From a virus (lineage: Duplodnaviria; Caudoviricetes): a DNA stretch of 64,000 nucleotides. Numbering within the stretch: the first letter of the stretch is position 1; every line of letters starts with the position of its first letter. The stretch spans positions 6,115 through 70,114 of the IMG/VR virus record IMGVR_UViG_3300031992_000084; one strand, 5' to 3'. A program made the position numbers and the translations under genes. Shown here piece after piece: positions 3,104-60,620 of the stretch. The notes under the pieces were generated by a model. That model was not told where the DNA came from and did no database searches. It was given only the letters and a program-made list of their open reading frames with translations.

Positions 3104-3520
3104 ATGACTGTCGAAGAATATTTGCGTAGTCTGGTTCCGGGCCTTGACCTCCAGGACAATGTGATCGCGAGAGCGGCCAGAAGCCCCATCGAGGTCAGCC
3201 TGGAAAGGTTAGAAGTCGATGACGACATCGACGATTACGACGATGATGACACTGATTTCCAGATGCGTCTGGACTACGCATCTTCGACAATCTATTATTC
3301 GGTGCTTGGGGTTTTCGCTGGAGGTGGTTACTCTGAGCAGGTAGGAGATGTAAGAGCATCTCGAGGAGGATACACCATTACGATGGCGGACCGGGCTCGC
3401 TTCAAGTCTATGGGCGACGCCCTCCGCCTCAAATGGGGATTCGATGTCGACGATGACGACTCCGCCTGTGAAATGTATGATGCTAGTTCTTTGAAATATG
3501 AGGTTCATAGAATTTCGTGA
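3104..3520 (+). CDS. Head-tail adaptor protein
   Basis: Follows MCP; contains YSEQVGDVRASRGG, typical of Bacteroidetes phage adaptors. Confidence 0.6.
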   Translation: MTVEEYLRSLVPGLDLQDNVIARAARSPIEVSLERLEVDDDIDDYDDDDTDFQMRLDYASSTIYYSVLGVFAGGGYSEQVGDVRASRGGYTITMADRARFKSMGDALRLKWGFDVDDDDSACEMYDASSLKYEVHRIS

Positions 3521-3833
3521 CACTTGCGTGATTTCCCGTGGAACGGAAAAAGACGCCTGGGACAATGTCACCAACGCCAATGTTATTTATAGCGGCGAAT
3601 GTAATTATCAGGAGGGCGGTACGAGCTTCTCTCGGATATTTACGGTGAGGAACCCGACGATCTTTCTTCCGGATGCCTACATCGATGTAAAGATCAACGA
3701 TGCCGTCACAATCGTGACGGAGTTCGGAAGAGAATTGACATCGATCGTGAAAAGCGTCCGGGACATCAATCTTCCGTGGAGAGCGAATGTAAGGGTTACG
3801 AGAATTGAACTGAAACAGGCACAAGGGGAATGA
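3498..3833 (+). CDS. Head closure / neck protein
   Basis: 111-aa beta protein in neck position, overlapping the previous gene. Confidence 0.55.
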   Translation: MRFIEFRDTCVISRGTEKDAWDNVTNANVIYSGECNYQEGGTSFSRIFTVRNPTIFLPDAYIDVKINDAVTIVTEFGRELTSIVKSVRDINLPWRANVRVTRIELKQAQGE

Positions 3834-6077: not shown

Positions 6078-6383
6078 ATGTTCGATGCGTCGTCAGACAA
6101 CGAGAAGATCAAACACATCTATGGGAATTATGGTTTCTGGTCTTGGCTGAAATATTGGTATATAGACTCTTCAAACCAGGTTTTGATGATGTTGTATGAC
6201 AAAGGGTATTTTGATTACGATTATGAGCATGTTGAACATCCAGAGGATGTTACGAAGTGGGAAGATACTATAATGTCAAAAGAGGAAGTAGAAAAGAAGT
6301 TGTCCATGTTCGGAATCGGGAAAAATAAAGATGCTCGGATGTCATTGGAAGAGATACAAGAACACGTTATAAAAAACATATAG
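6078..6383 (+). CDS. Tail assembly chaperone, second ORF (T-like)
   Basis: Lies in the -1 frame relative to 5539..6072; that frame is open from 5910. Confidence 0.55.
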   Translation: MFDASSDNEKIKHIYGNYGFWSWLKYWYIDSSNQVLMMLYDKGYFDYDYEHVEHPEDVTKWEDTIMSKEEVEKKLSMFGIGKNKDARMSLEEIQEHVIKNI

Positions 6384-57395: not shown

Positions 57396-58898
57396 ATGCA
57401 GTTGCGCGATTACCAAAACACTTTAATTAGCGAAGCAAGGCTGGCTCTGTCGAAGCACAAACACATCATCGTGCAGTCGCCGACAGGATCCGGCAAAGGG
57501 GTCCTCATCGGCTCGATGGCTTCAATGGCCACAGCCAAGCATAACCGTGTTCTGATCCTGGCTCACAGTGAGGAGATTTTGAAGCAGGACGCAGGCCACG
57601 CCAGGAAATGGGGAGTGGATGCGGCTGAGGTCTATGCGAAAACGAGGAAGATGCCGGAGAATGACTGCTGCTGTATGATGGTGCAGACGCTTCGACAAAG
57701 ATTAAAAAAGGATTATTGGCGGATTTGGTTTGACGAATTTAACTTCTTAATACTCGATGAATCGCACCGTTCCGAATTTGACATCGTTTTCGAGTATGTC
57801 AATCCGAAGGTGTATGTGGTAGGGCTTAGTGCCACCCCTGCTCGGTATGGGCGAATGAAGCAACTCGCGCTTATGTATGAGGCGATGGTAGTTGGCCCAT
57901 CAGTCCAAGACCTAATAGACCAAGGTTTTTTGTGCCGATGCAAGTTATATTCCTTGGATGCTCCGTCGATGGATGATGTCGAGTGGGACTACGGTCGTGG
58001 AGATTACTCGCTTGGTCAGATGGCTCAGAAGTTCAAGTCTCGCGCAAGGTACATCGGGGCAGTGGAGAATTATCAGCGTATTTGTCCCGGCGCTAAGGCC
58101 GTATGTTTCGGATGTAGTTCCGAGCAAGTTATTGGAATCACGGAGCAATTCTGCGCTGCGGGTATTAAAGCGAAATACCTGCTATCAGCCAACTTTGATG
58201 AGGACGAGGACTTTAGTGGTGAAAGAAAAGAGATTATGGATCAGTTTAAGCGCGGAGAGTTCCAAGTTCTTGTGCTGCTTGGAATCGGAACTGCTGGCCT
58301 GGATATACCTGATATAAAGGCCGTGCTTGTCTTGTTCGCTACGACCTCGATAGTTAAGTGGTATCAAGTGTTAGGTCGTTGCAGCAGGCCCGCTGACGGG
58401 AAGAATGGCGAGTTTATCTGTTTGGATTTTGGCCTCAATTACTCTCGCCTCGGTCGTTATGAAGATTCTCGCGTTTGGGGACTTTGGCATAAGGAGGGCG
58501 CTGGCGGAGGAGTGCCGCCTATGAAAATCTGTCCGCAGTGCCAGAAGATGATTCCTGTCCAGTATCAAGATTGCCCGTATTGCCAGTACCACTTTCCGAC
58601 ACAGCAAGAAATATATCAGTCGGATTTGCAAGAAATAGTTGCAAAAAACGACGAAGAAACTATTGAGTCCTATGTTGCCAGAAAGAAACTTGAAGGGAAA
58701 TCTAACAACTGGATATTGGTCCAAGTTTGCATAAAGAATCCTGACAACCAAAAGGAAGCATTCATGCGAGCAATCGAGGTGCTGAGGACAAAGCACGGTG
58801 CGAATATCAGCCCAAAGTATTACTTCTTTTTTCGTAAAAACATCCTCGACAAGGTAAAGGTCAAGAAACAGGCGGACTCCTCGCCGAAACTGTTTTAG
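57396..58898 (+). CDS. SF2 (DEAD/ResIII-like) helicase with Zn ribbon
   Basis: SPTGSGKG, LDESH, GLSATP, GLDIPD, CPQC..CPYC. Confidence 0.9.
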   Translation: MQLRDYQNTLISEARLALSKHKHIIVQSPTGSGKGVLIGSMASMATAKHNRVLILAHSEEILKQDAGHARKWGVDAAEVYAKTRKMPENDCCCMMVQTLRQRLKKDYWRIWFDEFNFLILDESHRSEFDIVFEYVNPKVYVVGLSATPARYGRMKQLALMYEAMVVGPSVQDLIDQGFLCRCKLYSLDAPSMDDVEWDYGRGDYSLGQMAQKFKSRARYIGAVENYQRICPGAKAVCFGCSSEQVIGITEQFCAAGIKAKYLLSANFDEDEDFSGERKEIMDQFKRGEFQVLVLLGIGTAGLDIPDIKAVLVLFATTSIVKWYQVLGRCSRPADGKNGEFICLDFGLNYSRLGRYEDSRVWGLWHKEGAGGGVPPMKICPQCQKMIPVQYQDCPYCQYHFPTQQEIYQSDLQEIVAKNDEETIESYVARKKLEGKSNNWILVQVCIKNPDNQKEAFMRAIEVLRTKHGANISPKYYFFFRKNILDKVKVKKQADSSPKLF

Positions 58899-58901
58899 AG
58901 T

Positions 58902-59030
58902 ATGGATGCGGCATACGGCATATCTCGCACCCGAGACAAAAAGGGCATCATTGTCAAACAAACAACCCCTCCGTGGGTAAACTGCATTCACACAAATGTG
59001 GGCGGCGGCCGTCTACGATGGAGGTGTTAA
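58902..59030 (+). CDS. TRD-like mini-ORF upstream of the methyltransferase (possibly frameshifted)
   Basis: MDAAYGISRTRDKKG...VNCIHTNVGGGR; the -1 frame continues STMEVLILEVYEEDNPL to 59065. Confidence 0.45.
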   Translation: MDAAYGISRTRDKKGIIVKQTTPPWVNCIHTNVGGGRLRWRC

Positions 59031-59042
59031 TATTGGAGGTAT

Positions 59043-60041
59043 ATGAAGAAGATAATCCCCTTTGACGACTACAACCATAGGATACATTCCGGCACGGATA
59101 TTGTGGGAACGGTTCTGCCCACTTTGGGCAACCACGCATTAACGAATGGATGGAAACTGATAGAGACAGATATTGATATGGCAAAACATTACAGAATCAG
59201 AAAACTTACTCCGACGGAATGTCTTAGATTGATGGGAGTAAGCAACGAAGACATCGCGAAGATGAGGGCTGCTGGCATCAGCGACAGTCAACTTTACAAG
59301 ATGGCGGGCAACAGCATCGTTGTATCGGTGCTTGAGGGTGTTTTCAGGAATATGAACTTTGGGGACAAGCCCCTTCGCGTTTTTGAGGCATTTGCGGGCT
59401 ATGGTTCGCAAAGTATGGCGCTTCGGAACATCGGAGTAAATCACGAGGTGGTAGGCATCAGCGAGATAGACAAGTACGCCATAATGGGGTACAACGCTAC
59501 CCATCCAAAGACTGAGAATTTCGGTGATATCTGCAAGATAGATTGGTCTCAAGTGCCCGATTTCGACCTTTTCACTTATAGTTTCCCTTGCACCGACATT
59601 AGCAATGCGGGAGCGCAGGCTGGCTTTGAAGAGGGCTCTGGCACTCGCAGTTCTTTGCTGTGGGAATGTCGTAAGGCAATAGCGGCCAAGAAACCCAAGT
59701 ATTTACTTATGGAGAATGTCAAGGCGATAACCAGCAAGAAGTTTCTTCCTGGTCTGCACAGATGGATGGACTTTCTTTCTACGCAGGGATACACAAACTT
59801 TATCAAGGTTCTAAACGCCAAGGACTATGGCGTCCCTCAGAACAGAGAGCGCTGTTTTTTGGTTTCCATTCTCGGTGAAGCGTGGTATGATTTCCCTCAG
59901 CCCATACCCCTTGAGAAGAAACTGAAGGATGTGCTGGAGGAGCAGGTGGACGAGAAGTATTATCTCGACCAGGAACGAGTAGACAAATTTATAGCCGAAT
60001 TGAGCGATGAAAAGCGTAGTGCCCTGGAACACGGAGAATGA
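59043..60041 (+). CDS. Circularly permuted C5 cytosine DNA methyltransferase
   Basis: Order IX (RKLTPTECLRLMG), X (LYKMAGNSIVV), I (FAGYG), IV (SFPC), VI (MENV), VIII (QNRERCF). Confidence 0.9.
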   Translation: MKKIIPFDDYNHRIHSGTDIVGTVLPTLGNHALTNGWKLIETDIDMAKHYRIRKLTPTECLRLMGVSNEDIAKMRAAGISDSQLYKMAGNSIVVSVLEGVFRNMNFGDKPLRVFEAFAGYGSQSMALRNIGVNHEVVGISEIDKYAIMGYNATHPKTENFGDICKIDWSQVPDFDLFTYSFPCTDISNAGAQAGFEEGSGTRSSLLWECRKAIAAKKPKYLLMENVKAITSKKFLPGLHRWMDFLSTQGYTNFIKVLNAKDYGVPQNRERCFLVSILGEAWYDFPQPIPLEKKLKDVLEEQVDEKYYLDQERVDKFIAELSDEKRSALEHGE

Positions 60042-60399
60042 TGGAACAAGCCGCACGATTAAAGCGCAATACTACAAAAATGGATTTGTCAACTTCTTCA
60101 TCGGAGGAGATTATGGTGCAACGGGCGTGTTTGAATACTGCGGGGAAGGGGATAGCGAAGACGGTGTTGTCGGGGTATTACAAGTACGGGGTGCAGACGC
60201 TATTGACGGGCGACTTCGGGACATCGGGAACGATAGTCTTGGAAATATCGTTGGAAAAATCAACTCTTCCCAAGACGGAGTGATAGTCCATATCAACTCT
60301 ATAGTACCCTGTTTGACCAGTGGTCACGGGAATTGTCCCAAGGTGGTTGTTATTGATGATGATGGCACAGGAGTTGCAGGGGGAGTAGAAAAAGAATGA
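60007..60399 (+). CDS. TRD-like ORF A (two modules)
   Basis: VVPWNTENDGTSRTIKAQYYKNG... and IVGKINSSQDGVIV...VPCLTSGHGNCPKV. Confidence 0.55.
   Translation: MKSVVPWNTENDGTSRTIKAQYYKNGFVNFFIGGDYGATGVFEYCGEGDSEDGVVGVLQVRGADAIDGRLRDIGNDSLGNIVGKINSSQDGVIVHINSIVPCLTSGHGNCPKVVVIDDDGTGVAGGVEKE
60038..60283 (+). CDS. TRD-like ORF B, nested in another frame of ORF A
   Basis: ATG overlaps the methyltransferase stop; second ATG at 60113; CLNTAGKGIAKTVLSGYYKYG...IVLE. Confidence 0.5.
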   Translation: MMEQAARLKRNTTKMDLSTSSSEEIMVQRACLNTAGKGIAKTVLSGYYKYGVQTLLTGDFGTSGTIVLEISLEKSTLPKTE

Positions 60400-60400
60400 T

Positions 60401-60616
60401 ATGAAAATTTCAGAACAAGTTGGAAGAATAACTGGAGCTCAACATGATGAATGCGGGTTTTAGTTTCAGGTTGAGACATGTTTACCTTCTGAGGAGTCGG
60501 AAGCGATTGAGGTTATTTATTGTTTCCCGTTCAATCAAAAATTGCCGAAAGAGATTGCTCTCGACAAATTCAAATTCAAGCAAGTTAAGATAACTGTAGA
60601 AATGGTGGAGGATTAA
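60401..60616 (+). pseudogene. 71-codon ORF interrupted by an in-frame TAG at 60461
   Basis: MKISEQVGRITGAQHDECGF*FQVETCLP...VKITVEMVED, filling the intergenic gap exactly. Confidence 0.5.
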
Positions 60617-60620
60617 GCGT

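Follow-up and report, generated by a model that had tools for sequence, protein, structure and literature searches.

C5 cytosine methyltransferases are textbook single-chain enzymes with a built-in recognition domain, and the few exceptions are fixed two-part splits; in M.EcoHK31I, for example, the small chain is encoded in another reading frame and overlaps the large gene. Bacillus phages reportedly encode multispecific C5 methyltransferases (M.SPRI, M.Phi3TI and M.Rho11sI, associated with the Trautner laboratory) that carry their target recognition domains (TRDs) in one chain, between conserved motifs VIII and IX. Here we analyze a C5 methyltransferase locus at positions 58,902 to 60,399 of a 64,000-nucleotide (nt) stretch of phage DNA, which we refer to as the window (positions 6,115 to 70,114 of the IMG/VR virus record IMGVR_UViG_3300031992_000084). 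In this locus, a circularly permuted catalytic core is surrounded by short TRD modules, several of which are separate small open reading frames (ORFs).

About 27 natural permuted C5 methyltransferases have been listed; in every one the chain is opened in the variable region, and permutants made by engineering are also active (PMC5944983). The commonest topology, called 'Type H', is that of M.BssHII, M.Alw26I, M2.Eco31I, M.Esp3I and M2.BsaI (PMC5944983). M.AquI and M.EcoHK31I each function as a pair of polypeptides, and fragments of methyltransferases complement one another when detached (PMC3404938). Permuted, two-chain and multispecific phage C5 methyltransferases are already known, and what appears to be new in the present locus is the encoding of TRDs as staggered free-standing mini-genes. 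Our full-text searches of the literature found permuted, split and multispecific enzymes, and found no such mini-genes around a permuted or split core.

The locus may represent the phage's DNA-protection methylase built as a kit, in which one core is surrounded by TRD mini-genes of 45-65 codons. We have moderate confidence in the proposal that free TRD peptides act in trans on the permuted core, which would make this a combinatorial multi-subunit C5 methyltransferase. The features of the locus are as follows.

59043-60041, + strand: C5 cytosine methyltransferase of 332 amino acids (aa), TRD plus core (Pfam PF00145)
59178..60041, + strand: permuted catalytic core from Met46 (MAKHYRIRKLTP), with motifs IX, X and I-VIII and a helical tail ending in LSDEKRSALEHGE and a stop codon
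58902..59065, + strand: dead TRD mini-gene of the 'AYG' type, reading MDAAYGISRTRDKKG..VNCIHTNVGGG in frame 0 to ~59010, then TMEVLILEVYEEDNPL and a stop codon in another frame
59043..59177, + strand: fused TRD of the 'IIPFDDYN..VGTVLPTLG..NGWKLIE' type, N-terminal and in frame with the core
60007..60138, + strand: TRD mini-gene 1, free-standing (MKSVVPWNTENDGTSRTIKAQYYKNGF..GATGVFEY), offset in frame by +1 from the core
60113..60283, + strand: TRD mini-gene 2, free-standing (MVQRACLNTAGKGIAKTVLSGYYKYGVQTLLTGDFGTSGTIVLEI.. to a stop codon), offset in frame by +1 from module 1; the 3' part of ORF B
60238..60399, + strand: TRD module 3 (LGNIVGKINSSQDGVIVHINSIVPCLTSGHGNCPKVVVI.. to a stop codon), in the ORF A frame, own start codon lost
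60007..60399, + strand: ORF A, 130 aa, comprising module 1, ~33 residues (out-of-frame module 2) and module 3
60038/60113-60283, + strand: ORF B, carrying AKTVLSGYYK

The circular permutation of the methyltransferase is real. Its ORF matches Pfam PF00145 (DNA_methylase) with 204 bits against a cut-off of 22, and its PDB matches, found with phmmer, are M.MpeI and M.HhaI (E = 1e-35 to 1e-32). The alignment to M.MpeI has two segments in swapped order: query residues 48-107 correspond to M.MpeI residues 331-391 (motifs IX-X), and query residues 109-306 correspond to residues 9-273 (motifs I-VIII). Query residue 107 therefore falls close to the end of M.MpeI, and residue 109 close to its beginning. 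The resulting chain order is TRD, IX, X, I-VIII, i.e., the 'Type H' topology. A first-pass annotation, made from the sequence of this DNA alone, had proposed that motifs IX-X precede motifs I-VIII, and the Pfam match and M.MpeI alignment bear this out. It had also proposed that the chain is opened within the variable region. The break indeed lies at the edges of that region; however, it is not inside the TRD, which occupies residues 1-45 and sits in its entirety N-terminal of motif IX. The motifs can be read directly in the translation (I FAGYG, IV FPCTD, VI ENV, VIII QNRER, IX RKLTPTE, X GNSIV), and all six are invariant or nearly so across 25-39 homologs. When all 332 aa were modeled with AlphaFold2, the core was predicted with high confidence (predicted local distance difference test, pLDDT, >90) and the catalytic loop was not (<50). 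The junction between motifs X and I resembles the joined ends of the two core genes found in split relatives, and this resemblance suggests that the permutation may have arisen independently of that in the M.BssHII / M.Alw26I group.

Five TRD-like modules had been described around this core, recognizable by the strings VNCIHT, VGTVLPTLG, SRTIKAQYYK, VPCLTSGHG and AKTVLSGYYK, and all five are present. One is dead, one forms an in-frame fusion with the core, two stand free and have their own ATG (60007 and 60113) and one is startless (~60238). Homology to the TRDs of ordinary multi-TRD enzymes was found for four of them. Module 1 matches the variable region that separates motif VIII from motif IX in the normal-order multi-TRD homolog P0080 (E = 2e-11), the AYG module has its match in the variable region of normal-order P0117 (E = 5e-4), module 2 matches a TRD of a fused multi-TRD relative (E = 1e-4) and module 3 matches the methyltransferase locus L024/L025 (E = 1.4e-6). 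The TRD-like character of the fifth, the fused IIPFDD module, is less secure: its TRD match is weak (E = 0.34), and it grades into clearer 'LDxYN' TRDs via L078 and L086.

The ratio of nonsynonymous to synonymous substitution (dN/dS, or omega) was calculated by the Nei-Gojobori method from codon alignments of eight module families, with dS of ~1.4-2. In these eight families, dN/dS is 0.08-0.14 in the module frame, as compared to 0.8-3.3 in the two shifted frames, and this contrast implies that each module stretch is selected as protein in exactly one frame. Among the window's modules, the values are 0.085 for AYG, 0.087 for module 1, 0.081 for module 2 (1.9-2.2 in its other frames) and 0.088 for module 3. 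That the modules are free-standing thus proves correct for several of them, which are separate ORFs with their own starts and are under purifying selection.

Comparison with relatives clarifies the state of each module. In the AYG mini-ORF containing VNCIHT (58902-59030), the C-terminal part, TMEVLILEVY, carries on in a different frame to 59065. Intact AYG modules in relatives read MDAAYGISRTRDKKG..VNCIHTNVGGGWKTMEVLILEVYEED and are 57-67 aa long (L006 3230-3403, L001 620-823 and others). At the DNA level, GGCGGCGGCTGGAAGACG in L006 and L001 aligns with GGCGGCGGCC-GTCTACG in the window. The suspicion that a base is missing near 59010 is confirmed by this comparison, which reveals a 1-nt deletion accompanied by neighboring substitutions at ~59010-59011. 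The ATG of the fused IIPFDD module overlaps the tail of the dead module (GAGGTATATGAAGAAG). The same IIPFDD type is likewise fused in homologs P0001-P0014, and is free-standing, ending in ..KLIEIYEED.., in L161 (2225-2386), L165 (1725-1886) and L167 (594-755).

The ATG of mini-gene 1 lies on the Asp-Glu codons (GAT GAA) of the core, such that ..LSDEK.. is reread as ATG AAA... Homologs of module 1 are separate ORFs of 50-66 aa in L078, L063, L083, L003, L161, L158 and L165, and only in P0058 is this module fused to the C-terminus of the core. For module 2, a search of 5.8 billion proteins returned 52 separately called small homologs of 47-94 aa, none of which is named and none of which has a Pfam match. 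Several begin with MV(R/Q)R(V/A)CLN, as does the window's copy, and this shared N-terminus supports the ATG at 60113 as the start. Copies of module 3 that retain their own ATG are found in L006 (4697-4867) and L158 (4382-4549).

The arrangement is not peculiar to the window. We took the 120 best matches to the methyltransferase among 5.8 billion predicted proteins as a homolog set, of which 69 have the permuted order, and we drew the DNA around ~30 relatives from IMG/VR, JGI, ENA, Logan and NCBI assemblies. In these relatives, the core almost always lies within an array of small ORFs, each of 45-65 codons and in forward orientation. Such arrays accompany permuted cores in L001, L003, L006, L063, L078, L079, L158-L161 and L164-L167, and normal-order split cores in L007, L021, L064, L085, L086 and L098. 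The mini-ORFs have the general form MK(K/R)..P(I/L)NT..DG...T(I/L/V)...(I/V)LE(I/V)Y(E/D). About a dozen module families recur, reshuffled in order and combination across related phages.

Within an array, the ATG of the next ORF is placed on the preceding Tyr-Glu/Asp codons, e.g., ..GAG GTA TAT GAA GAA.. is reread as ..ATG AAG AAG... Because of this placement, successive units step by +1. Among 82 adjacent pairs from 27 loci, 65 are offset by +1, 11 by +2 and 6 by 0, and the exceptions mostly lie beside visibly frameshifted or decayed modules. The frames in L158 run 0,1,2,0(core),1,2,0,1,2,0, and L098, with a normal-order split core, has six +1 steps from the gene for motifs I-VIII to the gene for the TRD and motifs IX-X. 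The acidic tails of many units (EEDN.., EDDS..) are the out-of-frame reading of the Lys-rich start of the next module.

Frame changes of this kind might simply be assembly or sequencing indels in one continuous gene, as the first-pass annotation recognized, and the record does show further genes that look broken, namely the AYG module (~59010) and one with an in-frame TAG (60462). However, ~30 contigs that come from unrelated samples and unrelated assemblers (JGI, ENA, Logan, NCBI) have the identical staggered junctions and ATG placement. Moreover, homopolymers of 7 or more bases are absent from the window between 58800 and 60500. Since the layout recurs in so many independent assemblies, assembly indels do not explain it. 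We consider such an artefact extremely improbable; the layout is a family trait and not an assembly fault.

Several other observations were made in these arrays. Genes for HNH/NUMOD homing endonucleases lie beside or within them in L161 (2495-3004), L165 (1995-2504), L002 (115-747), L158 (344-919) and L007 (324-923). The normal-order methyltransferase at L024 2190-4196 (and also that of L025) contains an insert of ~400 aa right behind the catalytic Pro-Cys of motif IV (..SFPC, then FVAGTLI...VHN, then CQSISSAG..), which looks like an intein. A conserved insert of ~115 aa (..SIELLG.EIP.GTSGGTGYDEYA..) lies between two K-x-Y-R-I-(K/R) motif IX starts in the permuted homologs P0005, P0009, P0043, P0047 and P0055.

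A uniform +1 offset could also mean that ribosomes shift by +1 (or reinitiate) at each junction, producing one multi-TRD polyprotein like the multispecific enzymes of Bacillus phages. The existence of fused multi-TRD relatives indicates that such a product is viable. One module of L006 is also relevant: at 3380-3500, the core-adjacent module is intact and in frame with the core, and has ACG in place of its ATG. This module is either newly silenced or produced by other means, and the fact that it stays open favors recoding. However, frameshifting does not need a conserved ATG, and the junctions do not have the properties of a programmed frameshift site. Their consensus, yTrGArrTnT followed by ATGAAGArG, offers no re-pairing: a P-site Tyr UAU is unable to re-pair on AUG, the A-site codon, GAA, is a common one and there is no pattern of slippery or hungry codons. 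The 0-frame stop lies at a variable distance, 4-15 codons downstream. As for -1 slippery sites, inspection by eye found none in the overlap of the core with module 1 or at the junction of modules 2 and 3. Several shifts in series would leave almost no full-length product. Moreover, the HNH gene that separates modules from the core in L161 and L165 means that no recoding could join the upstream modules to the core there. Finally, in relatives where modules contain poly-G switches (see below), a switch in one module would disable every module downstream. We therefore view recoding as very unlikely.

The overlap of ORFs A and B raises a different question. As had been noted, both are open together over 60038-60283, and both overlap the end of the methyltransferase gene. 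It had been proposed that this shared stretch is dual-coding, a claim that comparison with relatives does not support. At 60113-60283, omega is 0.08 (0.081) in the ORF B frame, as compared to ~2.2 in the ORF A frame, so a single frame is selected. The ORF A frame across module 2 contains 1-4 stops in 11 of 13 copies and, among the copies counted, is open in the window and L006 only; in L078, L063 and L083, ORF A closes after 50-66 aa. On these dN/dS values and stops, we reject long dual coding of ORFs A and B. One whole module, module X, and the initial codons of module 3 are present in L006 and missing from the window, and this deletion accounts for the position of module 3 in the ORF A frame. 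Given the selection on ORF B alone, the stops in relatives and the deletion, we read ORF A as module 1 plus an apparently accidental read-through.

A more limited form of overprinting, specific to this lineage, might nonetheless apply: ORF A would be read through module 2 to yield a protein of module 1, a linker and module 3, and 60113-60283 would be truly dual coding. The open frame in both the window and L006, against stops in the 11 other copies, fits this scenario, as does an uninterrupted ORF A of 129 aa in L001, which is outside that copy count. Module 2 is followed, in the window as well as in L006, by a module that has no ATG and is in the ORF A frame, and in L166 modules 1 and 3 are naturally united in one ORF of 112 aa (3206-3544). 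However, the open sequences are close kin (94% identity in the core) and so count as one event, whose chance probability we estimate at ~0.1 from a Poisson distribution with ~2 stops per copy. In addition, the linker reading is without protein-level constraint across the family (omega ~2.2), and the loss of the module 3 start looks like a simple deletion. We judge this scenario to be quite unlikely, with slightly more in its favor than recoding.

Four kinds of evidence lead us to infer that TRDs could act in trans: cores without a TRD, an HNH gene separating modules from the core, a conserved Met and the poly-G tracts of relatives. Regarding the first, 13 of the 69 permuted homologs have no fused TRD and start directly at M(A)KHYRIRKLTP, and these TRD-less cores are conserved as well as the TRD-fused ones. 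Regarding the second, the order in both L161 and L165 is four intact upstream modules, an HNH endonuclease gene, a TRD-less core and three or four further modules. A similar arrangement, minus the HNH gene, is found in L164 and L166.

The third line of evidence concerns the start of the core. A Met is found 3-5 residues ahead of motif IX in 62 of the 69 permuted homologs (fused ones included), versus 0 of 42 normal-order homologs. In the window this is Met46, whose context, ..ATTGAT ATG GCA.., resembles the usual gene starts of the phage. Met46 is thus a candidate internal start, from which translation would yield the core with no TRD. The conserved Met and its start-like context raise the possibility that a TRD-less core may be translated even from fused genes.

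The fourth line of evidence comes from repeat tracts. In L007, L021, L079, L080, L084, L085, L086, L087 and L167, most modules contain tracts of G7-G11 (or C8-C9) in Gly-Gly-Gly codons. Poly-G/C tracts are concentrated in the arrays, with 48 in 43 kb, as compared to 13 in 72 kb of flanks. The near-identical loci L007 and L087 differ in tract length at two of six tracts, and the frameshifted modules of relatives break at poly-G/C tracts. In tract-bearing relatives, this looks like phase variation of individual modules, and switching of this kind is understandable only with independent expression of each module. In the window and its nearest kin, runs of Gly are spelled GGC GGC GGC or GGA GGA and are free of tracts. 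With no homopolymer of the length given above, the window does not have the repeat tracts of a phase-variable locus, and its array would be 'locked', with one module off.

We propose the following mechanism, based on these features of sequence. The fused TRD would give an ordinary cis-acting enzyme with a working specificity. A TRD-less core would be translated from the conserved Met46, and both of its chain ends would be located at the TRD socket. Free TRD peptides of ~50 residues would then dock non-covalently, one at a time, in this socket opened by the permutation. The permutation is pertinent because it puts both ends of a TRD-less core at the TRD gap, while a normal-order enzyme minus its TRD is in two pieces, like the split relatives. 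A single core could in this way methylate several target sequences, shielding the phage DNA from several host restriction systems. The range of specificities would shift as individual mini-genes are gained, are lost, decay or, in relatives, are switched by poly-G tracts.

Several points weigh against a role in trans. Exactly one fused TRD is carried by 49 of the 69 permuted homologs, and cis recognition may be the main or sole working mode. In the literature that we consulted, no C5 methyltransferase takes up a whole TRD in the form of a separate chain of ~50 aa. In the AlphaFold2 model, pLDDT is below 50 for the fused TRD (residues 1-46), making the model uninformative on TRD placement. The window's own array is partly decayed, with one dead and one startless module. 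Translation of the mini-genes also presents a difficulty, as their ATGs are buried in the preceding ORF with no obvious route of ribosome entry, and Shine-Dalgarno motifs are scarce in the phage's long genes: across the whole phage genome, such a motif was flagged in 7 of the 36 ORFs of at least 180 codons, leaving 29 unflagged. A GGAGG at the junction was considered as a Shine-Dalgarno motif and dropped: it corresponds to Leu-Glu-Val codons, its spacing to the ATG is only 3 nt and most long ORFs lack the motif.

These points invite the explanation that the enzyme acts only in cis, using its fused N-terminal TRD, and that the free modules are spare or recently detached parts that do not function as proteins of their own, kept only for occasional in-frame return by recombination or small indels. 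The single fused TRDs in the permuted homologs are of at least 10 types, and fused and unfused junctions are only 1-2 nt apart. Neighboring modules are fused in frame in P0012, P0025 and L166 (3206-3544), and decayed modules are common. However, spare parts do not readily account for a dN/dS of ~0.1, with dS saturated, in modules found as free-standing units at all sampled loci, for an ATG kept on Tyr-Glu/Asp codons at nearly all junctions or for TRD-less cores that are intact and conserved. Moreover, homologous exchange at a shared junction preserves the +1 offset, and so cannot alone fuse a distal module to the core. While this explanation is the most probable of the alternatives, we regard it as unlikely, and we prefer the kit of trans-acting TRD peptides.

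The source of the DNA and the surroundings of the locus provide additional context. The IMG/VR record is 70,114 nt long, is 97% complete and contains a single methyltransferase locus. The phage originates from gut or rumen. The host of this ~70-kb phage is probably a member of the Bacteroidota. Metagenome-assembled genomes co-binned with related contigs are Bacteroidales and Alistipes. Several long phage ORFs begin with ATGGCA behind an A/T-rich leader, and such starts, together with the mostly missing Shine-Dalgarno motifs, fit a Bacteroidota host. A DNA search of a collection of phage GenBank entries returned only short, distant matches to ordinary methyltransferase genes, and no annotated relative of the array. 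The gene upstream of the array is:

57396..58898, + strand: ResIII/DEAD-type helicase, 500 aa (Pfam PF04851, PF00270 and PF00271; ResIII/DEAD/Helicase_C)

This helicase ends in ...SSPKLF and a stop codon, with a gap of 3 nt to the first TRD module, and a helicase is also the upstream neighbor in L005, L006, L079, L158, L159 and L164. On the 3' side of the array is a small gene (60402-60617, MKISEQVGRI..ITVEMVED) with an in-frame TAG (60462-60464) at the place of a Gln codon, CAA, in L006 and L079; a 6-nt insertion lies close to this TAG. The TAG is either a nonsense mutation or a hint that TAG is decoded as Gln. Recoding of stop codons was set aside as having no bearing on the array, given that no tRNA gene, and so no suppressor tRNA, was found in the phage genome and that no module ends in TAG.

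If the proposed mechanism is true, it would represent, in a widespread phage family, a new way to build specificity in C5 methyltransferases, with a logic closer to that of Type I S subunits. It would help to explain how gut and rumen phages keep up with varied host restriction systems. It would also give annotators a reason to keep small overlapping ORFs, and might offer a natural plug-in scaffold for tools of targeted cytosine methylation.

The locus shares features with each of four known systems. As in Type H enzymes, motifs IX-X come before motifs I-VIII, the new chain ends are in the variable region and the TRD is ahead of motif IX. However, Type H enzymes are single polypeptides with one TRD that belong to restriction-modification systems, whereas the enzyme in the window is encoded by a phage and has extra staggered TRD mini-genes on both sides. 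Also unlike Type H enzymes, many of its relatives are without any fused TRD. The resemblance to M.SPRI, M.Phi3TI and M.Rho11sI is that a phage encodes one core and several interchangeable TRDs of ~40-60 residues. Unlike enzymes of this SPR type, which have their TRDs in tandem, the core chain in the window has one TRD, the others are separate +1-staggered ORFs and the core is permuted.

M.AquI and M.EcoHK31I are assembled from separately translated chains, as would be the system that we propose from the window's sequence. Their two halves are fixed, the split lying either in the variable region or at motif IX. In the window, by contrast, the catalytic part is undivided, and complete alternative TRDs would form the separate chains. 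Finally, in the HsdS subunits of Type I systems, including phase-variable ones (PMC7672463), recognition is performed by a separate, exchangeable protein, as may also be the case here, and relatives of the window have switch tracts. In contrast to HsdS, which has two TRDs per subunit and serves an N6-adenine methylase, the window has no switch tracts, and the two systems have no relation in sequence or fold.

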